A stretch of 58,092 bases of DNA, filler included, from Sphacelaria rigidula (Eukaryota), in assembly GCA_964200075.2 (NCBI GenBank). It is 6 parts of 6 records of this genome, joined end to end, with 100 filler letters (N's around TTAATTAATTAA, not from the genome) between each part and the next. Parts side by side here need not be neighbours in the genome. Positions count along the whole stretch, not along the records: positions 9,701 to 19,300 come from CAXNAA020008124.1; 5 more parts are not named here. One strand, written 5' to 3'. Positions 3,001 through 45,800 of this stretch are shown one piece after another. Below the pieces are notes generated by a model, which searched no databases, was not told the origin of the DNA, and saw only the letters and a list, made by a program, of their open reading frames with translations. Positions within the stretch are counted from its first letter, which is position 1. Every line of letters starts with the position of its first letter. Made by a program: the position numbers and the translations under genes.

Positions 3001-5304
3001 GATCCCAGCGCTTGCCCGAAGTAGATAGTTGAACACCTACTACTTGTTACTGGAAGGCGGCATGAAAATGACCCAAGAGTAAACTAGAAGCAAACATCGA
3101 CCGACCAGCAAATGGATGGATCTAACGCTAAATGTCAGCTCGTGTCTTGAGGATGCCGAAAAATTCCAAGTAAAGAACTCAAGAAAAACAACTTGTATCC
3201 CCACAACGCCCGATTCGGATCGTAACCAGAGAATACGGACAGGATGATTTGGAAGAGCGGTGTTTCTTTTGGCGCTGGACGCATCTCAAACAGCAAACAG
3301 CAAGCAGCCCCGAGAATCTCAAGAGGCACTCCAAGGGCCGGAACTGCAACATGCGACTGGAACACGCCACCCTACACGACCGAGCCCCTACGAAGGCGCA
3401 TGGACACCCGCAGCACAAGCGCATAACGCCACGCGCTAGCTCTTGCTCATGTACGCACACTCGTGCTTGTTCCACGGCAATCCGTTCGGTATTGACACAG
3501 GGGTGTGGTGTGCGACAATAAAGTTGCTCGCGGTAGTGCCGTTGACCGCTTTTGGGTGTCTGGGGCGGCGCCCGTCTGCTGGCAGAAATGATCGTGTCTC
3601 TATCGAACCTTGAACCGACATGACTCAAGCCAAGAGCGTCATACTCAGTTGATCAACAGCTGCAGCTCAAGCTATGCATGGTGTATCTTGCCACAGTGGG
3701 ATAACAAGTGGTTCATGTGTGCTGGTGCTTCAGGTCCGGGCTGTGTCGCACCGTGCGCCTGAGGTAATTGCTCTACTGTTCCCTCTTCCTCCTCGAGGGA
3801 AAAGTCCTGCGAACAGCTCATTTCTATTCAAAAATATTTTTTCCATAAAAAGCCCTGCCGCTCTCCAAAAAAATCGCAGCCTCTTTTTATTTCTCTATGT
3901 GTGTGGGGGGGGTGGTGGAATCGCGGTGACCACTCAATAGGTTGCTTTTGGTCCCCTAATCTTCTTGACCTTTTCTTGGTCCCGCTAAGATTGGCACTCA
4001 CAACCTGTCGAGATGAAAGTGTGTGCCTGTCATTTCAAGGCATGCAGAATCGATCCGATCCAGAGTAAGAGACAGGCACGCGATACAACGTGTACGCATC
4101 CACGGATACGGTAGAAAGCTCGACTCCACTAGATTTACGAGGTGCTGTAATTGAGGGCGTTCGATTCCATGTTGGGCAAGCATCATCGAATACCATGTGT
4201 GCGAATGTTTGTGTACCATGTAGACTTCGCCCGCAAGTGCGGAGTTTCGGCACCATCACCATCACCATCACCATCCGTGCTGTGCGGTTGTGCAAAATCA
4301 GTAATTGCAGCGTCAGTTCTTCATGGTTCCAAGACAAAGCAAACATACAATGCATGGTTGAGTAATACTTCTTTTCCAGGCTATCGGGTAGTGTTTGGGG
4401 TGCAGTGCAACTTTCTTGGTGGTCAGCGTTCCAACCTCTTGGATTGGCAGTGATTCGTCAGCTGATGGTCGCTATCGACCCTGGTCTCATTATTTTGAAG
4501 CGTTTCGCTCCCGGTGCCGACCCAAATGCAACATCCAAAATCGATAAATCGGATTTGATTCCGACCTCGTTTTTGTTTTCAAGATATTCCAAAATACACG
4601 TCTTCGTTGCTTCTGCGGTAGCAAAAACGCCTGCTCAGCCTGATGAAGATTTGGAGAAGCAGTGTTGGGTACAAACTCAAACCGGACTGGAGCCTGTTCA
4701 CGCATACAAAAGAGGATGCGTCATTGTACGATTGTCGCCAGTTGCTTCTCATGTGCTGTTCAGGCAACGACACCGGAACAAATCATGATACAGAGTAAAA
4801 ATGCGCCGTCCCTTCCTGAATTTAACACTATAGCTGATTCGATCATGGTAAGAAAGTGTTAGAATATACGTGACGAATGGTGACAGAATCAGTAGACCTA
4901 TAGCTTCGGGTGAAAACCTATGGTTGACAGGATGAGTACTTGAGTTTAGAGTGGAGAAAGTTCTGACAAATGTTTTGGTTCGAGCAGGTGAGCAGTGGCC
5001 CTAGCTCGTCCACAATGTGGTTCTGTCCAAATGGGCGCCTGCGGCGTCGATTTGAGGTCTGCCAATGCACACTTCGCCGAGGGGAATAATCTATGCACCC
5101 TCTTGCCCGAGGGTCTCGTACGCCTTGGGTCGGGGTTGGTGGTAGTGGTGGTTTGTTCGAAAAAATGAATCATAGATTTGCGCCCAAAGCTACAGGTTGC
5201 CTCAACAGAACGGGACCGTCACTAACCTACTGTTCCGAGAGGAGGTTATGATATATAATATACATCAGTAGTGCACTCGCTGAGACATTCATCATCATGT
5301 GTGA

Positions 5305-5757
5305 CCCACTGTGCTCCGGATTAGGAATTTTTACAACATTATAGCCGCATGCGGCAAGCACCGTAGACCGGGCGTGGTTGCACATCACATCATTAGCGAT
5401 CACCGCAGCACCAGCGGACGGAAGAACGCCAGGAGTACACAAGGCTGTGGGCAAAAGCGATGTGCATTTTGCACTAAACCCCCCGGATACAAGTGGAGGT
5501 CGCCGGAAAATGCAAATTCAAATGTCGAAGCCGGAGCGAGTCGACAGTTCGCTGGAAAATAAATGTGTAATCATACGAAGTCAAACCAACCAACAAAAAA
5601 GCCTCGTTGTTGATCAATCACCAACTCCCGCCGACCGCGCGTCATTCCATCACCACTTGCTACCATCACCCCGCTAACCGAGATACCAAGAACATGGCAG
5701 ACGTCGCACACTCAATGAGGGGCCAGGCATGAGGGGTCACAACGCGTAAACATGGTC

Positions 5758-5798
<41 letters not shown>

Positions 5799-8450
5799 AC
5801 CCACAACCACCCGGCCGGCCGCAGGCCCTTTTTTTTTTTACACTCCTTTTTTTTTAAGCAACGTGCGGNNNNNNNNNNCCCTCCCTCCGCCCTCCGCCCC
5901 CTACAGAGAAACCAACGGGGCCGGAGATTATACTTTTTTTGTACACCACCTTTTTTGTACAACACGACGGGATGTCTGCAGCTGTGGGCGACAAAACCGG
6001 AGGCTACACTACGGGGATCGGACGCGCTGTCCGTGGTCTTATGACATGGTTGGGCGACTCCCAAGCCGGGGATCTCCGCAACATACTTCTCTCGGCGGTG
6101 CTGGTTGGCAACATCAATGCTGCTGGGGTACCACCTAGATCTACCAAGAAATCGATGTTTCTCCGTTTCGGGTCCATCCAGGACGCGTTCCAGCGTCCCC
6201 CCCCGTGGGGAAAAGATCCAAGATCCTCAGCAGTCTTCGTAGATGAACGAAGGTGGCCTTGAAGATGTAGCCAGCCACCTCCTCTACTCCCTTCGTATTC
6301 CCAGCGTAGTCCGCCGGTACAAACCTCGTATCTATTGTGAGCATACAGCAACGAAAATAAGAGGAAATGCAGACAGTGGACCTCTACAACCTCCACGCAC
6401 AGTCTACGTTCCCCCGTTTGACAGCCGCCAGCCATCGGTGTCATATTACACATTACATTTTTCGGGGACACACGCACGTTTCATGAGCACTACATTCGCA
6501 CAAACCACTAGTCCGCTACCTCACCTCGGCTCCAACTCGCGTGCCCGCGCACAAGACTTGCCTTTGCCACAGAAGCCAAATACTTCGCGAGACTCCTGGA
6601 AGAGTTGTGTGGATACTCGAACATACCCCCCTTGACCTTCTGACAGTGCATCAGCGGCGTGCTGAGTCCAGCATCCACGTATCGTGCCGTTCATTTTCTG
6701 TGGAGGTCCAACATTCGTCTCCGTCTTTCGAGGTGCGTCAAGAATAAATGATACTACAGGGGGTACTTCATAGCATGCCCATGCCCAGTCCTCGGGCGCT
6801 CGTAGAATAGTAAGACGTCGAGCCCTTCATCGGCCTGCGCAGACATCGGGGCAGATACGTGCATAATCAACCGTTTCACCGCCCGATACGTCACGATCAT
6901 GACAGATGGAGTACTGCGGGTCCTGCATCGACACCCAGCCCGCAACCACGGTCAGCACGCCACAAGGTGACATACTGTTCAACATGGATGTGGCGTCTCC
7001 TTCCTACATTTGAACACCTTCCGGCGATGTATACCACACCACCCCGTAGCACCCGTAGCACCCGAAGGGGCTAATGCTGTCTATGTACCTCAGTGGTCGA
7101 CGGGGTCTGTGCAACACCGCGATTAGTGAAGGCGTCATGCCCTGCGGGATAAAAGTAATTATTGATATGAGCCCAACATAAGCGCGCGTAGATTCCTATA
7201 TTGTGGTTGTGTTGACAAGAGGATATCATCCGTATTGTCGACCTGTACCCCATATAACACCCCTTTCCCCTGATTTATACTGAAATGTGGCTTGGCAGTC
7301 AAACGGATACGGCTAGATGTTCCGCCACTACATTCGACAAATGAAGACATGGAGTCACGCTGAGTACCGGGGCGTGGGACGAGTCAAGCAGCAAGCGACG
7401 TACCTCTCTCTGAGATACTCCAGAGCCACCGGAGGCGGATTTCTCGCGATCTTCAACCCGCTTCTGCTCCGGCTCTCAATTTCTTGCACTGGTAAAGGGT
7501 GTTGGTCGACTGTGGCCGGCGCCAGCTGCCGTTCCTTCGCGCGGAGTGTTGGGCGCGAACAGGAATCAAGTTATATCCGAAGCTTCCTTCGCGAACCGTA
7601 CGGCAAATTCAACAGTCGTCGCGCACAAGAGAGGGATCCGGCAACGTTGGCGTTCGGCCAGCACAAGGCATTCGCGCGATGGGGCCGCGGGCAACGTGGC
7701 ACATCAGCAGTACGGTGTGGTGAATGTATGGCGGGTCCGCTACCGAGAGGGGCCGATGAAGCCTCAGCCCCCAGTTGGTACTGTACGTGCGGTACAACAG
7801 TCCACTACAGTACATTTGTATTGCAAAGTCGGACCATTGCGCAAGGTAACAGTGCAAACCGTATTCTGTCCAGAAAATATATGCATCGTCGAAAACAAAA
7901 GCGCCGAGTGAATGAAGTGTGTGACAAGCAGTACAGAAAATATGATAGCAAATCAATACGATACAATACGAGAGTGCATAGGGCAAGGCGACTCGTTTCA
8001 CCGTTATACAGGGTCCTCTAGCGTGCAACAAATCCTGGGCGGGTTCAGGCAGATAAAACGTGCCGTTCTCGATGCACCGTGGATCGATCGTCCCCAAAAT
8101 TTGCACAGCATCGGTCGAGTATATCACAAAGCATGTGGCGCCGCTGGTTCTTCAACCCACACCGAGGAACTCGAATACACAGGCTGCACGTGAGGGGTAT
8201 GCGGCTGCGGACTGCTGCGCCCACTTCACAGACATGCAACTGGAGGCAACGCTCTCGCCACTCACCGGATGTATTGAAAAGTTTCCACTTGCCCAATTGC
8301 TTCCACACGTTGTCGCAACAGCCTTGTGCACTCCTCGCGTTCTTCCGTCCGCTGGTGCTGCGGCGATAGCTAATAATGTAATGTGCAACTACGCCCGGTC
8401 TGCGGTGATTGCTGCTGCCATGTTCGAAAAATCCCCAATCTGGAGGAGAG
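5305..8450. repeat. About 140-bp inverted repeat pair (5305-5450 and 8313-8450) bracketing about 3 kb of decayed, coding-like DNA
   Basis: ccgtagaccgggcgtggttgcacatcacatcattagcgatcaccgcagcaccagcggacggaagaacgccaggagtacacaaggctg matches the reverse complement of the 8320-8405 region; the ORFs at 5378(+) and 8388(-) give near-identical peptides (MHITxLAIxAAPADGRTxGVHKAV). Confidence 0.75.
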
Positions 8451-9700: not shown

Positions 9701-9983
9701 GCCCCTCCCCTCACTACTACTGTTCCGGGCCCTGTCATCCAACACATTCCAGGACTACAGCACCTACGGGGATACGCGTGACGGTGAGAGTGCAGAGCGA
9801 GTGCTGTCCGGCCGTGAGCCCACGCTGTTCGTGTGTGATATATGTGTGTGTTTGTGTGTGTGTATCTTGTGTGTTTTGCCTCCCGGACAGGAGTGATTCT
9901 TAGTGTGACTTCATGTGCAGCCAAACCCCCGGTCTTTGCGCTGTTCTACTGGGTGATGGATCGCCCCTGCCTTCTCACTGCAT

Positions 9984-10200
9984 TGTATTGCGTGAGAGGA
10001 CCGCGTGCTTAGAGGACCGCATCGGAATTGCAACATCCCCATTGCTGGGGTCAGGGTCAGGGTTAGGGTTAGTGTTGGGGTTAGGGTCAGGGGCATGGTA
10101 CCTCCAGGGACTGACCCGATTGGTTTTGAAAAACGTCGATCTTGAGGTATTTGGGACCACGGCGCGGTCCTCCAAGCACGCGGTCCTCTCACGCATTACA
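9984..10200. mobile_element. 217-bp MITE with 37-bp TIRs and internal telomere-like (TTAGGG/TCAGGG) repeats
   Basis: tgtattgcgtgagaggaccgcgtgcttagaggaccgc (9984-10020) versus the reverse complement of 10164-10200: 2 mismatches. Internal ggggtcagggtcagggttagggttagtgttggggttagggtcagggg. Confidence 0.8.
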
Positions 10201-10898
10201 GGGTGACAAACAGAGACGCCGTCCTTTCAGTCAGGAGTCTGTTGACACGAATAACGACGTGTCTTGTGGCGTTCCAGTCTAGGGAGGAATGATGTTCACG
10301 TGTCCAGTTTTTGAAGGACGTGACGAGGGGTGTCAGGTGTAACTCGTCGCGCGGCGAAACACTGAAATCCGTTGTTTTGAAATAGGACGGGTACTCGATC
10401 TTGGAATCGATCGGGACCTCAGCTCAAAAGTTACCTGGCCCGAGAGGTAAGATCGCGACGCGCCTGAGCGGTACTGGCGTCATTCGTCAACCCGTCCGGG
10501 TCATGGAAGCATCGAAGTCGCTGGCGTAGGATGTGACCCCCACCCGCCGTGTAGGTGAAGGTTTTGCAATGAGAGATGGTCGACACACACCCGTATTGAC
10601 GAGGGCGTTGAGCCTATAATGCGTGTTGGGACCGCGCGCTTTCTTCAGCGCATCGTGGACGATTTTTTACACCTCTCGGTCTGGTCAATACCTGCGATGA
10701 CCGCGCTCATGACTTCCACCCCAACAATAACCCTTTTCAGGTGAAGGAAGCATGCGGTCATGCCACACACCACAGAGTCACAGAGCCTCTGCGTTGTGCC
10801 TGGCGAGCACAGAGATGACCGCCGTTTTTCACTTTCCTTTCGGTATCGATTGACCCACAGAGAGCGATCGTCTCGTGGGAGTTCACCGGGTGGACAGG

Positions 10899-13800
10899 AT
10901 GTTGTCGACGAAGAGGCTGTGCGGATGCGCGGCCGGGATCATCTTCTGCTTGGCTCTTTTCGCACGTTCAGCTATAGCAGGTGAGTCGCGCACTTTTTGT
11001 CGCGAATTTGACGGCATTTTGTCGACTGTCGATGTAGGCGTGAGCAAGGTGCTGGATCGCGAACGGCACACATGAGTGTCGGATGTTGTCCAAACCCTGG
11101 ACGTCGATCCCGGCGCTTGGTTAGAGTCCACCTTTGCGGCGCTGACTCCGCTGACGCCTCCGGCGTGCTCTTACGGCGTTTTGTGTTCCCGGCGCATGCA
11201 TGGCCGGGCGATTTTCAGCGCCCGAACCCGATTCATGTTCTTGATCCCACCACCGCCAGGACCAACGGCCGAGGCGGTGGCACTGCGGGAAGAAGGGGGA
11301 CCGACGGCCCTGGCTCCGGTGTCTTTTTCTGGAGGCTCCTCAACACGAGCATCAGGGCAAGGTGAGCCTCTAGGGAGGGTGAGGAGGTTTGGTTGAAAAC
11401 TCTGGTCGTTGCCGTGTCGTGGACGAGTATCGATGGCGCGATCATGCACCTGGCGTGGTCGAGGAGCTGCTCGACGTGGGTGCCGCCGCTGACGAGTGCC
11501 GCCGGTATCGTGTCCCTAGTCGAGGTCACTCCGCTCCGCCGTCGTTGTTGCATCGCACCTCCAGGTGAACAGGATGCCAGAATCCTCCGAAGGAAACGGC
11601 GCAGGAGGGGCAGAGGCAGGCGGAGAAGAAGAAGGGGTAGGAGGGGGCGGAGGAGACGTCGACGTGGGCGCAGAGGGCGAAGATTCCGTGGTGAGTGCAC
11701 CGCCGACCGGGCTAATATCCCGTGCGCCACGTGTTGAGCGAGGCTGATCAACCTGTCACAGCACCTGTAAACGAGGCGAATGACCCGTCAAAATACAACT
11801 CACTATCGTGGCCCGTGTAAAAAATACACACTGCTCAACTGTAAGTAGACACGAACAATCGGTTCAACTTGTGAACCCAGCTCTAACAAGAGAGCTCGCG
11901 GAGGCTGCACAGTGTTGGTTGAACACTTGTTTGTGCGAAAGAGAGGATGCTTGGAATTGCCGCTTTATCTGGGCGACACTTGAATCAAACACATGTAACA
12001 ATCGTTGGTTCCTCATGAAGGCAGAAACAGACTACAAGCTGATGAGCTTGCCTGAGGTGGGTCGCTTTGGAGATTAAATAGCGTGGGGCTATTTCACACT
12101 CATCAGTAAAACTAGAAAACTGTCCATCCAAACTGTCCATACTTGTGGACTCTCAGTACTCCACCCTTCAATACTCGGGCAATATGCTGACTCTCTGTAT
12201 ACGAGCTATACAGTACATGAGCTATTCATTATTCTACGATGAAAATCCCACACACTTCACTACCTCAGTTATTCGGACGATCTTCATTCTAACGATGAGT
12301 CGTTCCTGGTTTTCCCGCTAATCTCGAGTATGTAAATTCGCCGAACTGTCATTTACTGATCTTCCAACACCGTGCCGTAGCCAGCGCTGAAGCTAGCAGT
12401 GCGATTCGTCATCGTGTACCGCGCGTGTAGAGACGAGACGAGCGTCCCACACGTTCCGAAGATGCCGCCGAAGAAAAACGGTAGGTGGACGAGGTTGTAC
12501 CATATTTGTCGCAGTGGTGCGACACACAAAAACCTCTCGAGATTCATGCCTTGACCCGCGTTCGTTGCCCCCACGTCGACCCCGCGCCATGTTGCCGATG
12601 CGTGTGCGGGAACTCTGTCCGCGTCCCTCGCAGGAAGGATCAAGTTGCCTCCGACACCAACGGCGGCCCCGACCGCCACGCCGGCGCCGACAGCCACGCC
12701 GGCGCCGACAGCGACGCCGGCGCCGATTGCGACAACGCAGCCAACGCCAGCCCCGTCGGAGGAAGGCTTCATCATCCTTCCGATCCCTGGTGAGAGAGGA
12801 GTGAAGAATCAATCGTTTGTCCCACGGTGATGCCACGTGTCGCGACGAGTAGCGTGTAATTTGCGGGTTGCGGGAAAATATGATGCCACGCCACCGTCGA
12901 TCGGTGACTCTGCCTCGGCGACTCCTCCCGCAAGATGCTCCCGTGCCCAGTGACCCCGTTCGGCCCGGTCGCTCAGGGGTGTAGTCGTCCAGCCATCGCC
13001 CAGTCGGGGTGTACCGCGTGCTTGTTTTACACGACTGACATGGTGGAAATCCCCTTGTTCTGGGCCGACCGTGTCGTCATTGTCGCTTTCCATTCGCACG
13101 GTAGGAATCCCCGGGCTCGCGATCGGCGGCGGAATTATCCAAATAGCAGATCTGGTGGTCGGCCAGACCATTGTTGTCCTCCTGGTGGACGCGACTGGAG
13201 TCCCGGTTGGGCAGGTCACCGTCGTGGTGATTTTGAATCGAAGGCTGACGGAAACGACCGAAGGAGAGCAAGCCGCCATCTCAGCGGGGAGCGAGGCGTC
13301 CCGCGGTCTTCAGCTCCGGGGGGTGATCAATGTGAGTAACGTGGTGCCCACCGCTGGCTCACCATACGCCAACCATACGCCACGAGTATCTCGATGTCGT
13401 GTTCTGTCCCCCAGGAGCATGTCCTGTGGCCCTCGAGCATGGGTCGAGGCCATGTTGGCGGGAAGGCGTGTACAGGGTCTGATATTTGTGTCGCCGATAT
13501 CGTTGTCGTCGTGCACGTTTGCGCGTAGCATGGGCCGCGGTGCCACCTCTTCTCGTGGAAACCTTGATGGGGAGGACCCAGTACGGTCGCGAGCGTGAAA
13601 AGCAGGGCACAGGTCGGGTCGTCGTCGCTCCCGCTCATCGGTGTCAGCTATTGGGGACAGTAGCAGCCATCGCACTGCCTCTCTGATGGACACTGTTTTG
13701 GACTAGCCGAGCACGCCCGACGAAGCAGTGGGGAGACGATGATACCAACCCCGACTTTTACCGCCTCGCTCACGACTTGCCGTCGACCCGAATGCCGCTG

Positions 13801-14590
13801 TTGTTTTGTCCACGTATCGCAGGTGAGGATAGACATCGTGAGCGTGACGATCTACCGCCGGGGTATGCAGGTGGCCGAATCGAACCCCTTCTTGGTCGCG
13901 ACCGTCAATGGCCAGGTCGTCCTTCGCACCCCGCCCGTCTTTGGCACCTTCACTCCTGTGTGGACCCCGTCGCAGACATTCCCCGTCTTCTGCAGGAGCG
14001 CGACGCGCATCTGTGAGGTACAGCTGCTCCTGTTTAACGCGAACCCTCTTCCGACGCCGGCGCCAACCGCGGTGCCGAGTCCGACGCCAATGCCGTCGCC
14101 AGCCAACACTCCCGGGAATGGCGGTAACGGGCCCGGAAATGGCGGTAACGGGCCCGGAAACGGCGGTAACGGGCCCGGAAATGGCGGTAACGGGCCCGGA
14201 AATGGCGGTAACGGGCCCGGGAATGGCGGTAACGGGCCTGGAAACGGCGGTGACGCACCGGGGAATAGCGGTGACGCACCCGGGAATAGCGGTGACGCAC
14301 CCGGGAACAGCGGTGACGCACCCGGGAACAGCGGTGACGCACCCGGGAATAGCGGTGACGCGCCCGGGAATAGCGGTGACGCACCTGGGAACAGCGGTGA
14401 CGCACCCGGGAATAGCGGTGACGCACCCGGGAATAGCGGTGACGCACCCGGGAATAGCGGTGACGCACCCGGGAATAGCGGTGACGCACCCGGGAATAGC
14501 GGTGACGCACCTGGGAATAGCGGTGACGCACCCGGGAATAGCGGTAACACACCCGGGAATAGCGGTAACACACCCGGGAATGGCGCTTAA
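10899..14590 (+). CDS. Six-exon gene for a secreted low-complexity protein (about 486 aa): signal peptide, RXL sites, poly-Arg/Gly tract, PT-rich linkers, C2-like beta domain, Gly/Asn/Asp heptad repeats
   Basis: Exons 10899-10980, 11260-11361, 11565-11690, 12634-12789, 13105-13331, 13823-14590. All introns are GTGAG...AG, the phases (1,1,1,1,0) match, and the 1461-nt frame is open. N-terminus MLSTKRLCGCAAGIIFCLALFARSAIA is signal-peptide-like; ends in TAA at 14588-14590. Confidence 0.8.
14111..14587 (+). repeat. Coding 21-bp tandem array: 6x PGNGGNG, 1x PGNGGDA, 13x PGNSGDA, 2x PGNSGNT, then PGNGA
   Basis: cccgggaatagcggtgacgca and cccggaaatggcggtaacggg units; variation within each block is mostly synonymous in this frame. 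Confidence 0.95.
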
Positions 14591-17500
14591 CGGGCCGTAA
14601 ACGGTCTCGAATATCCGCCCACTCCACTTCGAGCAGTAGTACCGTAGTAGGTCTCCTCGCGAAGGTCCTGTTCGGCAAGCGCCAACGGTTTGATTTTCAG
14701 GAGCCTCCGCTGTGTCTTTCCTTGATTCCTGGTGCTGATGGGCGATGGTGGGTACTTGTTCCTGACCGGTGGTCCTGGGTAACTGCACATGTGACGAGAG
14801 ATGAAAATTCGGTGCTGCATGGTGGCCCCAAAAAACCGCAGCGATTTTATCAGGAGTACGTGTAGTGATGGTGCCTGCCTGCGTTTCGGTAGAGTCCTTT
14901 CCGAATGGGTATACGTGTGAAGAGAGGTGAGGATGCGTTGACTGGACGGATGTTGGTCGAAAATGTAGATGGTGGCTTGTATAGCTTAAGATACTGACGG
15001 GTGTTGATCGATAATGTAGATGGTAGCTTGTGTAGCGCAAGATCTGTGGTTGCCGTCACAGAGCAACTTGTGAGATTATAACTGACGAAATGTGTTCAAT
15101 GGGGCATTCACTCCCCCCAAACCCCGCCGCAGTAGCCCCCAGGTGTGCCAGATGATGCGTTGTATGGCCCAAGACGTGGGGATTGTCGTTGGATGATCAT
15201 TGGCGGTACTGTAGCAGAACATACAAGGAAGTCCCGCCCCCCCCCCCCCTTCGGACAAAATTGTCTCCTACGGTCGTGCCGGATGATACGTGGGACCCGA
15301 CTTTGATCATGGCAGTTGTCGTCATTGAACAACTCGTACGGTAGAAACTAATCGGATGCAGTCGACAAGCCTCCGTACCCTTTTCGTCTCGTGGCTGAAT
15401 GTTGCCGCCGGGGCCAGTCGTCGTGGAAACAGTGACGGTTCCACGTGGGTGTGCCATACTCGTCCACCTTGAGGGGACATGAGCTGGAGCGTGTCTGTTC
15501 AACGACGTGAACACGCGATTCATTGCGCTATAGATTTGTGTTACACGACAGTGTCCGAATTGGCTGCTACGTGGCACACGACCCGTGGTATACTTGGCCG
15601 AACTCACAGCTCGCACGCATCGGTTCTTTCATGCCTCGTCAAAACGGGTTCCATCTTTTTGATTATTGACGAGTGGGGTCCGAGCTCGCGTCCTCTTGAT
15701 GTTCCACAGCGAACATTGACTTGGACACCCGTCCGATTGATGAATCTGGAAGAAGAAAGAAGTCGAGTGTCGGTTTCATCAAGTTTTCACAAGGTGCAAG
15801 GACGGGAGGCCCTTCAATTTTTCTGGAGGAACAAACCAGGTCCACAGCAAAAAAAAAAGAGAGAAAGGCAACTGGAACATGAAAGGAAGCGAGAAAGGAC
15901 CCTTCACGTCAAAAACACGAAAAAAACAGCTCATGAAACATGAAAAAAGTCAAAAACATAGGACTGATACGAGGAAAAGGATTAGGTCCTACGAAATCAA
16001 AAGAAACCAGAACGGAATAGGGAAGAACAAATGGAATCTAGACTAGAAATGACCGGACAGAAAGAAAAAAGGACGAGGTCCTGAGGAGGAAATCCTGCTC
16101 CGAAGAAACGAGGCAAACAAATCGCGAAGGCGCCCCCCTCCCCCCGAAAAAAATCAAGATCAAACGTTGCAAGGGTCGGACCAATAATGATTCGTCAGGA
16201 AATTACTTGGTTTTAGTATGATTGGTCGACTCGTGACGAATCAATCCCTAGGCTTGATTTCAGCGTTGCAACCCAGGTACACGAAGCCCAGACCCGTGGA
16301 ATGGCGCAAAAGTTGCGTGGATAGTCCTTGGACCAGCGATCAACATGTTTCTCCCTTTTGGGCAATCAGGTCGAAGACATCGTGAACTTGGTGATTTTGA
16401 GTCGTGATGATTTGTCCTAACCGTGAAACGTTGTGAGGTGAGAAAATAAAGCCGGGAACGATACGTAGTAGATAACCGAGCTCATGATCAACGGAAAAAC
16501 ACGAGTGAAAACAGACCCGAAGAGAGTAGAAAAAAGTACGTACTGAACAGCTGTTCCAATAAAAAGAAAGAAACAGTACTGAACTACTGCTCATTACTAT
16601 ATATAAAAATAAAATACGAATACAAAGCGCTGCTCGCTCCTGTAATGCACCACAAAACAGTCTCCAGCTTTCCTTCGTACAACGTTCATGCTTTTCTCTG
16701 CTTCGCTCGCTCAATGCCATCGACTCGCTCGTCTGGGTCATTTGCTGGTGCTCTTCACTTATTGAAGACTCTCCGCAGTCTTCGTCAAATCACTTCTTTC
16801 GAAACGTTCACCGTCATCGAACACTTGTCGTCTATGCTAAGCGTCGTCAATATCCTCTCCGAATGCAAAACCTACGAGGAAACAAGTTCATAACATCACT
16901 GCGCGACAGAGGGACATGGCGTGCTCGGGCGGGATAGCATACTTGATGCCTTGGCTGGGTGGTGCAGATGCCAAAGGGCGTAGAACCCGTCCACACGGGA
17001 AGCATCAGGCTTTCCAGGACTCTGCTTCCTGGTAGCTTTTGACATTGCTCCATCCTGGGCCTTTGCTCGCTATTTCCAACCATTTTTTTTTGTTTTTTTT
17101 AGATTTGGACTCGCGACGGTGTTTCAGGGTGAGGAGGTGGGGTGTGGGGTTTTCAAAGGTTGGCGTCGCCCCGAGGTCTGGTGTTCAACCAAACTAGGCG
17201 GACCCGTCAGCGGTTGAATATCTCAGGTGGGGCAGGTACCGGTGTGTAGTTCGACCTATGGCGGACTATCTTGCGCGTACGTATTTTGTGTCCTCGCATC
17301 ACCACCTCCAGTCCGCATGCCGTCATGAGTCCTTGCCAACTTTCCATGTACCGTGTACTAGTGCTGCAATTTCCTGCCGTGGCCATCCCGACATTGATAT
17401 CTCACCTTCCGGATCCACCACCAGTTTTACCTCGCATAGGTACTATTCGCGCTGTTCTTCGAGAGGGCCCAGTCCTGCACTCGGTTCTGCTTCGCGAAGG

Positions 17501-17766
17501 TCAGCTTAGATATATGTGTGTTTTTGCGTCGACACGGCAACTCGGGGAAGGGAGCAGCGTGTCAAGCAATGTGCGCTTGGTTCAAGGGGCCAATGAGACG
17601 TGTCCCCACCTGACTTGCGAAGCTCTGACAACATATCCAGCACTCATCCTCCTGGTCTCACGACTGCGTTCTTACCGCGTGGGAGATCTGACGCTTCGGG
17701 GAGGATGCCTTCTTTCATTCACCTGCTCAAATGGGTGACTACCTCCACGCTAAACGCTTCGCCTCT

Positions 17767-17838
17767 GTTCCGCGAATCTTTTGAGGGACACAGCAAGTTA
17801 AGGTTCCGCGAATCTTTTGAGGGGCACAGCAAGTTACG
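17767..17838. repeat. 36-bp tandem duplication
   Basis: gttccgcgaatcttttgaggg(a/g)cacagcaagtta occurs twice, back to back. Confidence 0.85.
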
Positions 17839-18284
17839 CACATTCTGCAGGGGCACTGACTACCCCGTTGACTTGTTTTGACGGCTGCGAAAAATCAACT
17901 GGGGATCGAGAAGCGAGGTCAAGTGCCTGCAGATGCATGTGTATGTGAGCGCAACATTACCTCAATTGTTGGCTAGTTGATCACCTCGCCCCATGGGTCT
18001 ACCGCACGCGCCTACCTGATGGCCGTTTCGCGACCACTTGACCTCTTGGGCCTCCTGCATCGGCATGGCGGCACATCTTGCCTGAGATCTTTCGTGCGTG
18101 TTGAAGAAAGGGAGCGGTCCCGTATCGTGGAAAGGGAGGCGCCTACTGCTAATTTTTCGAGTGCTCGTCATTATTTTGGAACCGCCGGCAGCTCCTCCGC
18201 ATCGATTCCCAGGTATCGCTTTTATTTCGTACTCAGATCGCCTCTCACCCACCGTTTCGGCCGTCGTTTTTCCCCCAGGTCCAA

Positions 18285-19268
18285 CGGTTTTGTGGGGATA
18301 TCAGAAACAGTGGAAGAATTGCACAAACAGATAGACAAGGCGCACGAATACACTACTGTAGGCAATGGAGAGTGACAGCGAACAGCGAATGAGAGTGATG
18401 ACGAATGTGAAAATATGCGCGATACTCGTCGGTAATGAGGATGAGAAAAATACACTGGAGTTTAGGTGGAAGTGGGGAGAAGGGAACTGTCGATTCCAGA
18501 CTAATATACATACCTTGGCTTAAAGATCTCAAAACACTGTTCTTGGGATGCACAAATGAACAAGGTAGTATAAAAGGTAAAGTACAGATAGGAAGGATGA
18601 ACGTGATCCAGACACCAGGATTGAGATGTGTATCCTGACGAACTTGATCGTACCACAGCTGGAATATGCAGGAGGAGCATGGAAGTGGGACGTGAAATTG
18701 GTGACGCAAGCTAGAAAACAGTACAGAGAGCAGCAGCCAAGCAGATGTTTGGGTGCACGGACCTGCCGGAAAGATTAATTGATTGATTGGGTGATTGTCG
18801 CACTTCAACTGACCCCCCAGGGGTCTAGCCGTGGTCTCATGATAGACGTACCCACGAAAAACGAAACTGAAACACGCCCTGAGAAAAAGGGGAGCAGAAA
18901 AGAAAAGGATAACAGTAATCGGAAAGAGAAAGTTGATAGACAAACTACCTCTGTGGCAAAGCAGTCGAGAGCAGAAGTCATAAAGTGGCGCAATGTGAGC
19001 TGTACAAGGAGGAGCAACACGTGCTAGAGGGAAAAATGCGGGACGTGAACGAAGGAGGCATGGAATCGTCTGATGTATTAGCTACGTGAAATATGTTTGC
19101 GCAGAGTATGGGATAAACGTGATGAGCTATGGAAGAAGCGCAATGCGCGCCGGAATGTTGAACGTGTCTCTATATTACGAGTAGGAGCGGTGCTCCGTCT
19201 CGAAAGGGATGCGTGGTCAATGGTCAAACGACCAAGGCAAGCAACAAGTGAGTACGCCCCCCCTCAGA
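18285..19268 (+). mobile_element. Decayed LINE (RT C-terminal part and 3' end) with internal deletions and an inserted short repeat
   Basis: Colinear with the 24885-26254 copy (ggatatcagaaaca..., ctggaatatgcaggag..., gaagtaaacgaagg(t/a)ggcatg..., same 3' terminus); many stops and frameshifts. Confidence 0.8.
18775..18940 (-). mobile_element. Short retroposon-like repeat ending in AAGTGCGACAA-(TCAA)n, inserted in the LINE
   Basis: Reverse complement matches about 24520-24640 (gtacgtct...gaccacggct.ga.ccctggggg.tca.ttgaagtgcgacaatca). Confidence 0.7.
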
Positions 19269-19300
19269 TTCGATTGCACCTGTTCTCCCAAAGGGTCTCC

Positions 19301-31994: not shown

Positions 31995-34100
31995 CAGCAA
32001 TAACTCCGCCTCCCCCGCCCGGTACAGTCAAGTTAAACATCTCCCCAACGCGTGCAGCGTATATGATACCTGCACATCCTCCATCCCTAACCTCGCCACT
32101 TAGATCACCGGAGCTCGTAGAAAGACGTACCTCCGCCCCTCCCGCCCAGTTGAATTGAGTCAATCATCTTGCAGCGTGAAGGTTACCTTCACATCCTCCA
32201 TCCCTGACCTCGCCTGCTTGATCACCAGAGCTCGCAACGACAACGCCTCCGCTTCCTCCGCCGGGTTCAGTTACGCCAGACATAGGCAACGCGTGCAGCG
32301 GTTGTGCTACCTGCACATCCTCCATCCCCAACCTCGCCTCCTTGATCGCCGCAACTCGCTGGAACAGCGCGTCCGCCTCCCCTGTCCGGCCCAGTCGAGT
32401 CGAACATCTCGCCAAGTCATGTAGCGTATGTGCTACCCGCATATCGTCCGTCCCTAACCTGACCTCCTCAATCGCCAGAGCTCGCCGGAACAACGCCTCC
32501 GCCTCTCCCGCCCTGTCCAGTCGAGTCAAACATCTCGCCAACGCGTGCAGAGTGTAAGCTACTCGCACATGCTCCGTCCCCAACCTCGCCTCCTCGATCG
32601 CCAGAGCTCGCCGGAACAACACCTCTGCCTCCCCCGCCCGGTACAGTTGAGACAAACATCTGCCCAACGCGTGCAGCGTATTTGCTACCTGCACATGCTC
32701 CGTCCCCAACCTCGCTTCCTCGATCGCCAGAGCTCGCCGGAACAGCACCTCTGCCTCCTCCACCCGGTACAGTTGAGACAAACATCTGCCCAACGCGTGC
32801 AGCGTATTTGCTACCTGCACATGCTCCGTTCCCAACCTCGCCTCTGCAATCACCAGTGCTCGTCGCAACAACGACTCCGCCTCCCCCACGCGGGCAAGCT
32901 GAGTCAAACATCTCGCCAACGTGTGCAGCATAAAAGCTACCTGCACATTCTCCGTCCCCAACCTTGCCTCAATTATGGCCAAAGCTTGCCGAAGCAACAA
33001 CTCCGCCTCCGTCAGGCGGTCGAGTTGGCTCAAGCATTTGGCCAACGCGTGCAGCGTATGCGCTACCTGCACATCCTCCGTCCCCAACTTCGCCTTCTCG
33101 ATCGCCAGAGCTCGCCGAAACAACTCTTCCGCCTCCACTGCCCGGTCCAGGTGAGTCAAACATGTGGCCAACGCGTGTAGCGTGTGGCCTACCCGCAAGA
33201 CCTCCGTCCCCAACCTCGCCTCCTTGATCGCCAGAGCTCGCCGGAACAGTGCCCCCGCCTCCCCTACCCGGTCCAGGTGAGTCAAACATCTGCCCAACGC
33301 GTGCAGCGTATATGCTACCTGCGCATCTTCCGTACCCAACCTCGCTTCCTGGACGGCCAGAGCTCGCCGGAACAAAGCCTCCGCCTCCCCCGCCCGGTCA
33401 AGTTGAGTCAAACATGTTGCCAACTCGTAGAGCGTATGTGCTAACTTCACATCTTCCGTCCCCAACCTCGCCTCCTCGATCGCCAGAGCTCGCCGGAACA
33501 TCGCCTCCGCCTCCCCCGCCCGGTCCAATTGAGTCAAGCATCTGCCCAACTCGTGCAGCGTATAAGCTACCTCCGCCTCCCATGTACCCAACCTCGCCTC
33601 CTCGATAGCCAGAGCTCGCCGGAACAATGCCTCCGCCTCCCCTGCCCGTTCGAGTTGACTCAAACATCTGCCCAACGCGTGCAGCGTATGCGCCACCTCC
33701 ACATCCTCCGTTCCCAATCTCGCCTCCTTGATCGCAAGGGCTCGCCGGAACAGCAACTCCGCTTCCCCCGCCCGGTCGAGCTGAGTACAACATCCGGCTA
33801 ATGCGTGCAGCGTATGCGCTACCTCCACATCCTCCGTTCCCAATCTTGCCTCCTTGATCGCCAGAGCTCGTCGGAACTGCGCCCCCGCCTCCCCCGCCCG
33901 GCCCAGTTGAGTCAAATATCCTGCCAACGCGTGCAGCGCATAAGCCACCTCCACATCCTCCGTACCGAGCCTTGTCTCCTTGATCGCCAGGGATCGCCGG
34001 AAGCACACCTCTGCCTCCCCCGCCGGGTGAAGTTGAGCCAAGCATTCGGCTAAAGCGTTCAGCACTACTGCCACAGGTATCGCACTAGTCCCTAGCCTAG
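31995..34100 (-). repeat. 126-bp tandem TPR-coding array; the last ~3 units (31995-32290) are frameshifted or contain stops
   Basis: Unit EARLGTEDVQVAHTLHALGRCLTQLDRAGEAEALFRRALAI(K/E). The DNA periodicity continues past the ORF stop (e.g. GCG AGG TTA GGG ATG GAG GAT GTG CAG GTA TCA TAT ACG CTG CAC GCG TTG GGG AGA TGT TTA ACT TGA). Confidence 0.92.
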
Positions 34101-36075
34101 TCTCTGTGCTCTCCAGTGCCTGGCGAAGCAAGATTTCTGCTTCTTGAAATCGCCCAGATTCCGTTAGACATTCGGCTAGCATAAACCGCGCATCCGCAAT
34201 CTTTGCGGAGTCAGCATCGAGGTTCGCTTCCTCGGCTGCCTTAAGCGCCCGCCTAAACCACAGCTCAGCTTCGTCCACGCGCTCCAACGTATAGCAACAC
34301 GAACCAATCATGTGAAGAGATTGCACATACTCAGAAGTAGCAGCGGCTCGGCCATCAGACCTCAACCGCTCTTTTGCGACGTCTACCAACGGTTCCATCG
34401 AGCCCCGAAGACGCCGACTCTCCTCTTGATCTCGGTCTCTCACCGATACCTCACAGTGCCAGAGTGCAGTGAGAGAAGCATGCGGATTTGCCACCGGGTT
34501 GCCCTCGCATCGTTCCCATACTCCCCGCATCACGGCCTCAGCACCATGAAAATCACGGTTAATATTATACAGCTCTGCCGTAGCCTCTGCCGAGCAGAAA
34601 TACAACGGATCCGAGGAGTCTAGCGCAGACAAAGAAAAATCGTACGGGTGCAACTCACGTAACCCTTTCCCCCCTACGAGCTCAACCGCCTGCCACAGAC
34701 CCAGAAGGCCGTACACGTCCACTGACCGCACCACCTCCAAAGTGGATAAATGCGCCTGCCATCTTTTCACTACTTCTCGGCGAATATCCTCACGAGCATC
34801 CAGAAGAGTCCTCCTAGCGAATTCCGAACGAGCGTCGTGCATGCGGAACAGACCAGGCCCTGCCGCGGTGATGATCGCCCATCGCTCCAGAGCTGCCACC
34901 ACCTGCCCAGCTTGCTCCAGATCGTGCTCCGAGTGCTCGTGGCCGAATAACAACACGCAAGCCTCGTACACCTCAAAAGCGTGACCGCCTGGCATTACCG
35001 CCAAGGCAAGGTAAAGCCACCGGCTCTGCGAATCCTCAGCCCCAAGGCACTCGAAGCCAGCTCGGAGAATCGCGACACGTTTGTTCGCGCTGGGATCTCT
35101 ATCTGCGCTTACATTATCATCATCACCGAAGTGTTCTTCCTGAACCTTGTCCAAATGACGCCGGATGACGGCAATCGCCTTGGACCATGAGCCTCCATCG
35201 CTCCTCCCGTTTACCACTGTCCACCTTGCCACGGACTCCACATACATGGGCATGTAGTCGCACAGCTCAAACAACTCGTTTACAGGTTCTGGCAAACGAG
35301 CACCCTCGGGAAGCTCGGCGGCACTAGCCACGAGCGCCTCCGCCTCCTCCCGTCTCAACCGCTCCATCACGATCGCCTTGCCCCCGGCGTTATCTACCAG
35401 AACCTGATCTCGAGTCGTCAGCAGCACCCGCATGCCGGTCTTTCGCAGCTCCTGCACGACTTCCGGCTCCCACACGTCGTTCGCTACAAGCAGGCACTGC
35501 AGACCTTGACGCTTCAAGCACGTAAGCATAGCCTCTTGGACATACGCTGTGCCGTTCTTCGGTTCTATCGGCGACTGCCCGGGAGGATAGCCCCTGCTGT
35601 CCAGCACGTCCTCGTACACCCTCTGCGCAAGGCTCTGCATTAATCCTGGCAGTCGCTCGGCTGCATCTCTACCCACGTGGAGCCACACCACGCCGTCTGA
35701 GAACAGGGCTCGCACTCGACTCAGCCGCTCGAAAGCCTGCTGACGTGTCTCCCCGTCCAGGGGTCGGACCACACCTATCCCATGTCTAGCCACCATGGCC
35801 GCAGCGGTGGTCTTCCCTGACCCACTACCACCCACTAGCCCCACCATCCACGGGCTGCCCTCAGCGACAAAGTGATTGTGTACGTCGTCCATCACCGCGT
35901 TGCGCACGACATGCCAGCCCTTGGCTTTTGGAGCACCCGCTGGCACTGCAAAAAGCTTTGGTGACGACGGAGAAGTACGGGCAAGGAGAGTCTTCATGTC
36001 CTCCCGCGTTTCCCGAGTGTCTATCGCCATGCGATGTTGGTCCTGAACCACATGGTTCTGGACAGAACAAAACAA
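32164..36075 (-). CDS. NB-ARC-TPR (STAND NTPase, NLR-like) protein; large terminal exon, 5' exons uncertain
   Basis: Walker A GLVGGSGSGKTT, Walker B CLLVANDVWE, RNBS-B VLLTTR, MHD motif FRMHD, then about 2 divergent and about 15 near-identical 42-aa TPRs. Splice acceptor ttgttttgttctgtccag|AAC puts the exon start at 36057. Confidence 0.93.
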   Translation of the reverse strand: MFCSVQNHVVQDQHRMAIDTRETREDMKTLLARTSPSSPKLFAVPAGAPKAKGWHVVRNAVMDDVHNHFVAEGSPWMVGLVGGSGSGKTTAAAMVARHGIGVVRPLDGETRQQAFERLSRVRALFSDGVVWLHVGRDAAERLPGLMQSLAQRVYEDVLDSRGYPPGQSPIEPKNGTAYVQEAMLTCLKRQGLQCLLVANDVWEPEVVQELRKTGMRVLLTTRDQVLVDNAGGKAIVMERLRREEAEALVASAAELPEGARLPEPVNELFELCDYMPMYVESVARWTVVNGRSDGGSWSKAIAVIRRHLDKVQEEHFGDDDNVSADRDPSANKRVAILRAGFECLGAEDSQSRWLYLALAVMPGGHAFEVYEACVLLFGHEHSEHDLEQAGQVVAALERWAIITAAGPGLFRMHDARSEFARRTLLDAREDIRREVVKRWQAHLSTLEVVRSVDVYGLLGLWQAVELVGGKGLRELHPYDFSLSALDSSDPLYFCSAEATAELYNINRDFHGAEAVMRGVWERCEGNPVANPHASLTALWHCEVSVRDRDQEESRRLRGSMEPLVDVAKERLRSDGRAAATSEYVQSLHMIGSCCYTLERVDEAELWFRRALKAAEEANLDADSAKIADARFMLAECLTESGRFQEAEILLRQALESTETRLGTSAIPVAVVLNALAECLAQLHPAGEAEVCFRRSLAIKETRLGTEDVEVAYALHALAGYLTQLGRAGEAGAQFRRALAIKEARLGTEDVEVAHTLHALAGCCTQLDRAGEAELLFRRALAIKEARLGTEDVEVAHTLHALGRCLSQLERAGEAEALFRRALAIEEARLGTWEAEVAYTLHELGRCLTQLDRAGEAEAMFRRALAIEEARLGTEDVKLAHTLYELATCLTQLDRAGEAEALFRRALAVQEARLGTEDAQVAYTLHALGRCLTHLDRVGEAGALFRRALAIKEARLGTEVLRVGHTLHALATCLTHLDRAVEAEELFRRALAIEKAKLGTEDVQVAHTLHALAKCLSQLDRLTEAELLLRQALAIIEARLGTENVQVAFMLHTLARCLTQLARVGEAESLLRRALVIAEARLGTEHVQVANTLHALGRCLSQLYRVEEAEVLFRRALAIEEARLGTEHVQVANTLHALGRCLSQLYRAGEAEVLFRRALAIEEARLGTEHVRVAYTLHALARCLTRLDRAGEAEALFRRALAIEEVRLGTDDMRVAHTLHDLARCSTRLGRTGEADALFQRVAAIKEARLGMEDVQVAQPLHALPMSGVTEPGGGSGGVVVASSGDQAGEVRDGGCEGNLHAAR

Positions 36076-36153
36076 ATGGGGATATCGGGGAGGAACTGTT
36101 ACAAAAAAGGTGGGTCAACGCTAGGAGTTAAACTTCACCTTTCGGAAACTCAC

Positions 36154-38843: not shown

Positions 38844-38868
38844 GTGCACCCCTACCGTAGCATCACTC
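38844..38868. mobile_element. 25-bp terminus of a DNA transposon (GAG-terminal) truncating the gypsy pol
   Basis: gtgcacccctaccgtagcatcactc, 23/25 identical to 48347-48371; pol homology (PISSRPYRT) stops exactly here. Confidence 0.6.
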
Positions 38869-44800: not shown

Positions 44801-45800
44801 GATCGGTGTTCTTCGAGCGCGAGTGAACGCGCGATGAACTTGATCTATGCGGCGAGTTATCCTCGTGAGTATGGTCACGGTCGGCATTCATCGGGCGCTT
44901 CGGAGCGCGATGAATTGGAACTGTTGCGTGAACTACCTTCATATGTGCAGCCATGAGCGACATTCTTCGGGCGTGTGAAAACGCGCGATGAATTCAAGCT
45001 GTGCTGGGAGTTGTCCTTGGAACTGCCAGCGCAGGTGACGTGGTCGTGACCAACTGTCGGTGTGCGGCGCCGTTCAGGAGCGCGAGCAACACTTTGGTTT
45101 GAAGTGGAGGGGCTGGACTCGTGCTTGTTAAATTTCTTTTGAGAGACGAACGGAGAACGCGGTGTCGCTGATCGGGGCGCCAAACGTACGGGTATGGGCG
45201 CGGCAGGTGCAGAGTCATCGTTGAATTGCACGTGAGCAGAAGCCGATTTGTCTTGGAGCGTGGCCTGGCAAAAAGCCGTAAATTCCTCGATTAGAGCTGA
45301 GACTGGCGTGTGCGCCGACGCCGGAGAAGGGCGATGCAAATTATGCTGGGCAGAAAGCATGGCTGCGATTGCTGGTCCGACATTGGACTGCGAAGCAGAG
45401 CGCATTGGACTGCCGAGAGTCGTGCGATTGGGGTCCGTAACGGGAGCAACCCGCGAGAACCAAATCTCTTGCTCCAGAGGCGATACGCTTCGTCGGGACT
45501 GAGTCGTCTCGAGAGTTGTCAACCGTCATTCTACGGGGTGCCACGGTTGAAGCAGCCGTTACAGGGCCATGCTGAACACGTGTGTCCAGGGGCAACGACT
45601 CAGCTGGGGGCACAACCCTGTCTTCGGATTCCACATTGGGATCCGGAAGAACAGGCCGCAGCGAGGGGGGTGCTACGGAATCCACCGTTATGGGTTCACT
45701 AACATGTCTGTCAGGAGCCAATGACTCGGCCCGTGGCACAGTCCTGTTCTCTGAGTCCGAAGCGGTACTGGAGAGAACAGGTCGCGGCGTCATAGTCTTT
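38869..45800 (-). mobile_element. Decayed Ty3/gypsy LTR retrotransposon: long low-complexity upstream ORF(s), gag with CCHC knuckle, aspartic protease, pre-RT segment; RT and integrase absent
   Basis: CINCSVQCHSMRDC (CX2CX4HX4C, about 41495-41540); protease LFDSGSPQTFI (about 39895-39935) and ILLGRD (about 39700); EHCKTLPFEVTLQPAVSPISSRPYR (typical pre-RT). Stops and frameshifts throughout; LTRs not identified. Confidence 0.85.
40895..41115. repeat. About 117-bp tandem duplication inside the gypsy gag-protease spacer
   Basis: gtgccgggggagccggg...acaatc...agtc.cgg.ctc.gcgggctgtgttg occurs twice. Confidence 0.75.

Follow-up and report, generated by a model that had tools for sequence, protein, structure and literature searches.

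Diatom biosilica proteins such as the silaffins and silicanin-1 carry an "RXL domain" that lies after the signal peptide, ends in R-x-L, and is removed by an unknown protease, as described in PMC5525289, and arabinogalactan proteins (AGPs) are listed among the wall proteins of brown algae in PMC8307928. C2 domains are described in two topologies, I and II, set apart by a circular permutation that amounts to a one-strand shift (bioRxiv 10.1101/2020.10.30.361964). A six-exon gene at positions 10899 to 14590 (+ strand) of a 58,092-nucleotide (nt) stretch of Sphacelaria rigidula DNA (assembly GCA_964200075.2) has partial likenesses to each of these. The stretch, referred to as the window, consists of six parts of six records joined by filler, and the parts need not be neighbors in the genome; positions 9,701 to 19,300, which include the gene, come from CAXNAA020008124.1. 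The gene is real, spliced, and transcribed, and we put at about one in two the probability that it codes for a secreted matrix protein of one lineage, with an endoplasmic reticulum (ER) signal peptide, a permuted and calcium-independent C2-derived sandwich, an Arg tract that anchors it in the wall, glycosylated spacers, and a disordered tail. The known kinds of protein that its sequence appears to combine are the C2 domain and the Pro-rich wall glycoprotein. Much less is known about the proteins of the brown algal extracellular matrix than about its polysaccharides, and this gene is a concrete candidate with a testable domain logic of polyanion anchor, glycosylated spacers, beta-sandwich module, and disordered tail.

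An initial annotation of this DNA proposed that six exons with GTGAG/AG borders splice into one open frame, and the sequence reproduces this model: the joined exons comprise 1461 nt, or 486 codons plus a TAA stop codon (14588 to 14590), with no internal stops, 5/5 GTGAG donors, and 5/5 AG acceptors. In a stop-to-stop open reading frame (ORF) list, the exon pieces appear as separate fragments in differing frames. All features are on the + strand, and all five introns have GT..AG ends. Exon 1 (10899 to 10980) contains the start codon and the predicted signal peptide (residues 1 to 27) and is followed by intron 1 (10981 to 11259; 279 nt, phase 1) and exon 2 (11260 to 11361), which codes for a Gly/Ala/Ser-rich, mildly acidic segment directly after the signal peptide. 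Intron 2 (11362 to 11564; 203 nt) precedes exon 3 (11565 to 11690), coding for ...DARIL and then the poly-Arg tract, and intron 3 (11691 to 12633; 943 nt) precedes exon 4 (12634 to 12789), coding for the first Pro/Thr/Ala stalk and then EEGFIILPIP. Beyond intron 4 (12790 to 13104; 315 nt), exon 5 (13105 to 13331) contributes three predicted beta-strands and then a loop of ∼25 residues with RRL and RGLQ, and intron 5 (13332 to 13822; 491 nt) separates it from exon 6. The latter begins with a C2-like half of five strands (13823 to 14050), which has SNPF and PVW motifs and a C-x6-C pair and ends in ...LFNAN, continues with a second Pro/Thr/Ser linker (14041 to 14110), and closes with 22 heptads coded by a 21-nt repeat (14111 to 14585). 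Every segment named in the initial annotation is found in the translation, in the order given there. The phases are 1-1 (symmetric) for exons 2 to 4 and 1-0 for exon 5; searched singly with Pfam, exons 1 to 5 have no match, and an Rfam scan of the window gave 0 matches. At the 3' end, RNA-type contigs run on into the 3' untranslated region to at least 14900. At the 5' end, the ATG at 10899 is the first in frame past a stop codon at 10851 to 10853, which closes a 12-codon upstream ORF (10815 to 10853, + strand; ATG...TGA) that is in frame with the main ATG and lies 45 nt before it; its presence inside the transcript depends on the transcription start site.

Splicing is documented by contigs from public sequencing runs. 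Thirteen runs contain the stretch, with their kind guessed and none on record as RNA, and Logan contigs from four of them were aligned to the locus, two (X1 and X2) from one organism and two (X5 and X6) from two further organisms. Among the 15 joints listed of 23, four of the five predicted junctions are seen directly, each with GT..AG ends: 10980 to 11260 in 4/4 runs (5 contigs in X1, 2 in X2, and 1 each in X5 and X6), 11361 to 11565 (4 in X1 and 3 in X2), 11690 to 12634 (1 in X1, 2 in X2, and 1 in X5), and 13331 to 13823 (3 in X1, 2 in X2, and 1 in X6). The fifth, junction 4 (12789 to 13105), is absent among those 15 of 23 joints and is supported by a loose end at 13104 (three records in X1), whose tail is the 19 letters preceding the last G of exon 4, together with an NCBI protein, P0001, that joins exons 4, 5, and 6 at the same residues as predicted here. 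P0001 ("unnamed protein product, partial [Sphacelaria rigidula]"; 296 residues) is the one match to exon-6 residues 1 to 80 in a word-index protein search and is 95% identical; because it has the same exon joins but a different linker length and heptad number, its sequence is read as that of a paralog or allele on another contig.

The joint-carrying contigs have word depths of 3,006 to 38,849 in X1 versus 15 to 74 for contigs inside introns (31 to 74 within intron 3), a contrast that fits abundant mRNA above a trace of unspliced sequence and gives no rank against other genes. A total of 3,583 X1 contigs aligned to the locus, many of them just 90 to 99% alike, and 10 of the 15 listed joints lack GT..AG ends, including 11691 to 12639 (4 letters between), 13336 to 13835 (7 letters between), and several within the heptads. 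We read the latter joints as contigs of diverged paralogs or alleles and as repeat collapses. Across 10600 to 14900, X1 and X2 together provide thousands of contigs that are 90 to 99% alike, with loose ends having variant exon-1, exon-2, and exon-4 sequences, which suggests several expressed paralogs or alleles with a common signal-peptide exon and differing middle exons.

The predicted N-terminus has Lys and Arg at residues 5 and 6, a hydrophobic core at residues 7 to 21 (9-residue hydropathy means of 2.2 to 3.1 at residues 7 to 14), and A-I-A preceding Gly28, which agrees with the secretory N-terminus claimed at the outset; it is predicted to be an ER signal peptide that is cleaved, and the protein to be secreted. 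Plastid signals of stramenopiles have a Phe-type residue at the cut, and the residue following the predicted cut here is Gly, which argues against a signal of that type. A protein that is not secreted, and in which the Arg tract directs it to the nucleus or nucleolus or binds nucleic acids, would agree with the typical occurrence of Arg-rich tracts as nucleolar signals but is very improbable given the basic n-region, the hydrophobic core of ∼15 residues, and the A-x-A, as well as the conserved Cys pair, the Pro/Thr stalks, and heptads in common with exported prokaryotic proteins. An extracellular setting is further backed by the symmetric phase 1-1 exons 2 to 4.

Three R-x-L motifs are present, RIL at residue 67, RRL at 201, and RGL at 222. 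The initial annotation made much of RXL-type sites, but as an enriched feature they fall away: composition shuffles contain 2.0 to 2.7 on average and 32 to 51% of them reach 3, and the motifs are no commoner than chance. RIL alone is positionally suggestive. In silaffins, a polycationic region follows R-x-L, and here residues 28 to 69, right after the predicted signal peptide, end in RIL, with the polycation following directly and encoded with it in exon 3. The arrangement resembles that of the diatom "RXL domain" as laid out in PMC5525289, and in both cases a stramenopile protein has an ER signal peptide (predicted here) and then some 30 to 40 residues ending in R-x-L. The differences are that Arg dominates the present polycation (27 Arg and 1 Lys) whereas theirs is Lys/Ser-rich, that no homology was found, and that brown algae make no silica. 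The RIL-before-polycation layout bears on whether diatom-type RXL processing predates silica formation in stramenopiles.

The Arg tract spans 38 residues (71% Arg; net charge, +28). All six Arg codons are used (AGA 8, AGG 8, CGA 3, CGG 3, CGT 3, and CGC 2) and no tandem repeat was called over the tract, and for these two reasons it appears to reflect selection on composition and not to be a slippage product. One use for such a tract would be as a protamine-like cationic defense peptide that is freed after RIL to hit microbial membranes or nucleic acids, with the remainder of the protein as a carrier. Protamines have antimicrobial activity, the Arg content would suit this role, the depth of the spliced contigs greatly exceeds that of intron contigs, and the abundance of variant contigs suggests rapid evolution of the family. 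We nonetheless consider this improbable, as no cleavage motif bounds the tract downstream, the family conserves the sandwich and not the tract, and a free polycation would be sequestered by the alginate/fucan matrix.

The initial annotation recognized no described family in this protein, which is correct for the architecture as a whole but not for the beta core, which groups with C2 domains (PF00168; synaptotagmin, PKC, and Munc13 type) by phmmer and by Pfam analysis of the hits. Searching the 76-residue beta part of exon 6 against 1.84 billion representatives with phmmer gave 23 hits at an E value of ≤1e-3: three family members (P0001, P0003, and P0008), 19 large multi-C2 proteins (best E value, 1.9e-23), and a PD40 propeller (E value, 8e-4) that is probably a false match. 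Pfam confirms C2 in 19/19 of the multi-C2 hits (E values, 1.8e-48 to 1e-273). A profile made from 166 C2 copies of those hits aligns exon 6 to positions 32 to 92 of 126 with 36.3 bits and, being built from the query's own matches, is not independent of it; the Pfam C2 profile aligns residues 19 to 59 of exon 6 to its positions 21 to 61. A feature-based atlas search pointed to C2 clusters at 0.81, which is a lead only, and a PDB sequence search returned Munc13-1 C2B at an E value of 0.28 only, with low-complexity matches for the P0001 query.

From this sequence similarity, the exon-6 half is assigned as a divergent C2 domain. This half aligns to strands one to five of the profile and retains the [SD/N]P[YF]-v-v and nPvW motifs, but unlike described C2 domains it stands behind a predicted signal peptide, and the chain appears to leave the domain early: because the Pro/Thr linker begins immediately past the fifth strand (...LFNAN), which falls at calcium-binding loop 3, the final three strands of a C2 domain are lacking downstream. 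The calcium ligands also differ, with "ksDPY" of the profile aligned to ESNPF and "VwDsD" to LFNAN, and with LNP and FTAN at the calcium Asp positions of P0001 (Leu/Thr in place of Asp). Because Asn replaces the Asp ligands, the domain is predicted to be calcium independent. An extra C-x6-C pair between the fourth and fifth C2 strands is present in 4/4 family rows and 0/7 of the multi-C2 rows previewed; it probably stabilizes the core as a disulfide, and its conservation fits an oxidizing extracellular setting.

Relatives are few. P0003 and P0008 are short unnamed ORFs (51 to 52% identical), the family clusters hold one member each, and word-index searches for longer relatives with exon 6 or P0003 as the query found none; no homologs beyond the three family members were found in the protein searches made here. 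No second copy was found by tblastn of the family proteins against the window, and a viral contig scan gave no match. The gene is best read as belonging to a small family restricted to this lineage. One member is present in NCBI, as an unnamed partial product, and no description of the whole architecture was found in a narrow literature search, nor was anything specific found in literature on the brown algal secretome and Sphacelaria wall transcriptomes.

The missing strands of the C2-like half may be supplied from upstream. AlphaFold2 (AF2) predicts 3 + 5 strands in a first model and 3 + 4 in a second, and the two halves were also cofolded as separate chains with ESMFold2 (P0001 residues 21 to 90 with 91 to 184) without a supplied alignment. 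The median score was 0.63, with the best of three controls at 0.01, the runs agree in ≥70% of contacts, and the partner has a predicted local distance difference test (pLDDT) value of ≥61; the mark is reached by 51/78 solved complexes and 2/108 mismatched pairs (39/65 and 2/126 for eukaryotes). In the cofold, the last exon-5 strand (residues 66 to 73) runs antiparallel to the first C2 strand (108 to 117), and the first exon-5 strand (33 to 43) lies beside the fifth C2 strand (171 to 181). Interpreted by the adjacency of strands in C2 domains, these contacts are those expected of a C2 domain whose chain is broken at calcium-binding loop 3 and whose usual termini are joined. Neither type I nor type II C2 strand order is seen, in that the linker follows the fifth strand and the strands from upstream touch strands one and five, and the predicted permutation is deeper than the shift between those types. 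A narrow phrase search of the literature on secreted, extracellular, or permuted C2 domains gave no matching report; judged by title and abstract start, the papers that it returned appear to deal with other subjects, immunoglobulin C2-set domains among them.

The exon-5 and exon-6 halves thus modeled look like one eight-stranded sandwich, and this does not support the view of two beta half-domains parted by a cleavable RRL...RGLQ linker: the exon-6 half is C2 homologous and the exon-5 half cofolds onto it. The RRL...RGLQ stretch (pLDDT below 50; P0001 residues 80 to 100) is most likely a surface loop of one domain, because it joins an exon-5 strand to the first C2 strand with which that strand pairs, and cleavage between the two halves is unlikely in this model. 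A proprotein cut at RIL, RRL, and RGL had been envisaged, yielding two arms, one strongly basic with the Arg tract, a stalk, and the first beta half, and the other neutral to acidic with the second beta half, a stalk, and the heptads. All three motifs are indeed present, RRL and RGL are kept in P0001 and are accessible in the low-pLDDT stretch, and RXL-directed processing is documented for diatom biosilica proteins in PMC5525289. Nevertheless, with the motifs at chance level, a cut in the loop that would merely nick a single sandwich and leave the arms together, and an RXL protease known from diatoms only, where it acts on N-terminal propeptides and silaffin repeats, we regard three-site processing as quite unlikely.

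Two stalks flank the core. The first is 95% P+A+S+T over 37 residues with 10 [AST]P dipeptides, and the second is 78% P+A+S+T over 23 residues with five; the PT-stalk DNA is an 18-nt repeat of 4.2 copies. Chimeric AGPs and extensins likewise combine a signal peptide (predicted here), P/A/S/T-rich stalks that contain [AST]P dipeptides, and a globular module within a single chain, but the stalks here are short (23 to 37 residues), the protein has no N-x-S/T sequon, and it ends in ...PGNGA with no hydrophobic tail of the kind that makes a C-terminal glycosylphosphatidylinositol (GPI) signal.

The heptads that form this C-terminus (37% Gly, 19% Asn, and 14% Pro, with 14 Asp and 0 basic residues) run from PGNGGNG through PGNSGDA to PGNSGNT, and the repeat in the DNA has 22.6 copies with 93% matches. 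Long open frames are present on both strands over 14111 to 14585 (450, 250, 244, and 220 residues), including one at 13703 to 15055 on the – strand; these are by-products of a stop-free 21-nt repeat and not separate genes. A metagenome scan identified 15 loci that match the heptad tail alone (query residues 174 to 296) and not the sandwich. They include prokaryotic APGNSG[DN] proteins, bacterial ones with FecR domains (L001 to L003 and L010; L001 at 5485 to 6351) and archaeal ones with Fn3_arc or cadherin-like domains (L006, L009, and L013 to L015; L006 at 3299 to 4579), which have N-terminal signal sequences and C-terminal heptads that are 52 to 92% identical to the algal tail, although with 3 to 11 copies versus 22 here. 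The shared heptads are probably convergent, and by analogy the likeness suits an exported flexible tail.

These features can be assembled into a possible mode of action. After signal peptide cleavage, the protein would be secreted, and the stretch that follows may be cut off at RIL in the manner of the diatom RXL domains. Arg-rich polycations bind polyanions, as protamine does heparin, and the +28 Arg tract could similarly bind alginate and sulfated fucans electrostatically, anchoring the protein in the wall. The Pro/Thr stalks would act as spacers and are probably O-glycosylated. In the sandwich, the three strands found after calcium-binding loop 3 in an ordinary C2 domain would come first, from exon 5, with the RRL...RGLQ loop of ∼25 residues closing the usual C2 termini and the chain leaving the domain at loop 3; the module may serve in binding or oligomerization. 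The Gly/Asn/Ser/Asp/Pro heptads would form a hydrated, weakly acidic, disordered tail.

Several observations weigh against this reading. The RNA type of X1 and X2 is presumed and the comparison contains no DNA control run, two single-contig joints (12715 to 13235 in X6 and 12755 to 13205 in X2) are inconsistent with junction 4 and have ends other than GT..AG, and the secretory N-terminus is judged by sequence heuristics alone. The Arg tract contains 19 overlapping dibasic sites (residues 70 to 100), which could leave it open to destruction by kexin-type proteases. Eukaryotes in general process proteins at dibasic sites in the secretory pathway, and the tract could accordingly be a disposable spacer, lost through kexin-like cleavage and carboxypeptidase trimming to leave a mature neutral-to-acidic glycoprotein of residues ∼107 to 486, a composition borne out by the 11 K+R and 25 D+E in that segment. 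We hold this to be unlikely, since 27 Arg from six codons with no DNA repeat point to selection for a long polycation and a cleavage site needs no such length.

The structural part of the reading faces further counterevidence. The Pfam C2 match is below the cutoff of 22 bits for both exon 6 (13.9 bits; E value, 0.066) and P0001 (12.2 bits; E value, 0.22), and when two halves of a single chain pass a cofold, the model can be reproducing solved sandwiches that it has memorized. The exon-5 half scores 0.1 bit against the C2 profile, a score reached by 56/1,000 shuffles, and because it has no significant C2 similarity the permutation is drawn from predictions alone. The mean pLDDT of the AF2 models is 46 (five sequences) and 54.6 (C2 proteins added to the alignment); the first model and its Foldseek list were unusable, and in the second the exon-5 half has values of 57 to 63 and the exon-6 half 59 to 85. 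Foldseek results for the second model are weak and mixed, with KLP-6 (E value, 5.6e-4), Munc13-1 (0.021), the C2 domain of PI3KC2-alpha (0.078), and many SPOP MATH rows. In a VIA-align structural search of 48,161 chains, the best whole-domain match is a MATH domain, that of KLP-6 (Z score, 9.6; root mean square deviation, 3.6 Å over 126 residues; core pLDDT, 57 to 85), the chain being identified as such in PMC9314371. Among the best 50 rows viewed, C2 domains account for 19 (Z scores, 4.7 to 6.4, over 85 to 100 residues), most of which span model residues ∼61 to 185 only, equivalent to one exon-5 strand plus the exon-6 half, with synaptotagmin-1 C2A matched over 140 to 236. MATH, TRAF, and SIAH domains account for nine, with all strands in sequence order (model residues ∼24 to 191) and Z scores of 6.6 and 6.5 for SPOP and 5.7 for meprin alpha.

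The 150-residue core could therefore be a MATH/TRAF-C-type sandwich (KLP-6, SPOP, TRAFs, and meprin) that serves in oligomerization or peptide binding, and not a permuted C2 domain; the MATH fold is an eight-stranded sandwich like the one predicted here, its strand order matches the whole model, and the MATH domain of meprin is extracellular. However, no Pfam MATH row appears at an E value of ≤10 for the exons or P0001, sequence similarity is to C2 only, the PDB sequence search likewise detects no likeness to MATH, the structural match depends on a model of modest confidence, and a C2 domain opened at loop 3 may simply share the MATH strand order. In short, the sequence points to C2, and the predicted strand order is noncanonical for C2 and MATH-like; we favor the permuted C2 domain, with a true MATH relationship as an unlikely rival.

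If the permuted C2 reading is extended, the protein would represent a third C2 topology, permuted at loop 3 and exported, with a protamine-like polycation on one side and a disordered, acidic tail of heptads on the other. Being self-complementary, the protein could bridge alginate and sulfated fucans or phase-separate with them, as a brown algal counterpart of extensin-pectate or silaffin-type polyelectrolyte assembly that derives from phase 1-1 exons shuffled among paralogs. We offer this fuller scheme tentatively, as possible but less probable than not. A permuted, exported, calcium-independent C2 domain would, if true, broaden the known range of a domain that is generally regarded as a cytosolic module for membrane targeting and would illustrate domain permutation arising within a gene whose modules occupy separate exons.

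Elsewhere in the window, N runs (X in translation) mark assembly gaps at ∼5.8 kb, 8.7 kb, and 28.9 to 29.1 kb. A series of long ORFs (≤419 residues) at 38863 to 45838 on the – strand is Pro/Ser/Thr/Ala-rich with no Pfam match and may represent a decayed mobile element or a gene missing from the annotation. An uninterrupted 1,316-codon ORF at 32164 to 36114 (– strand), 18 kb downstream of the six-exon gene along the window, codes for an NB-ARC domain (E value, 1.5e-13) and many TPR_12/TPR_10 repeats (E value, 1.3e-90), a gene type that the brown algal genome preprint describes as expanded in brown algae.

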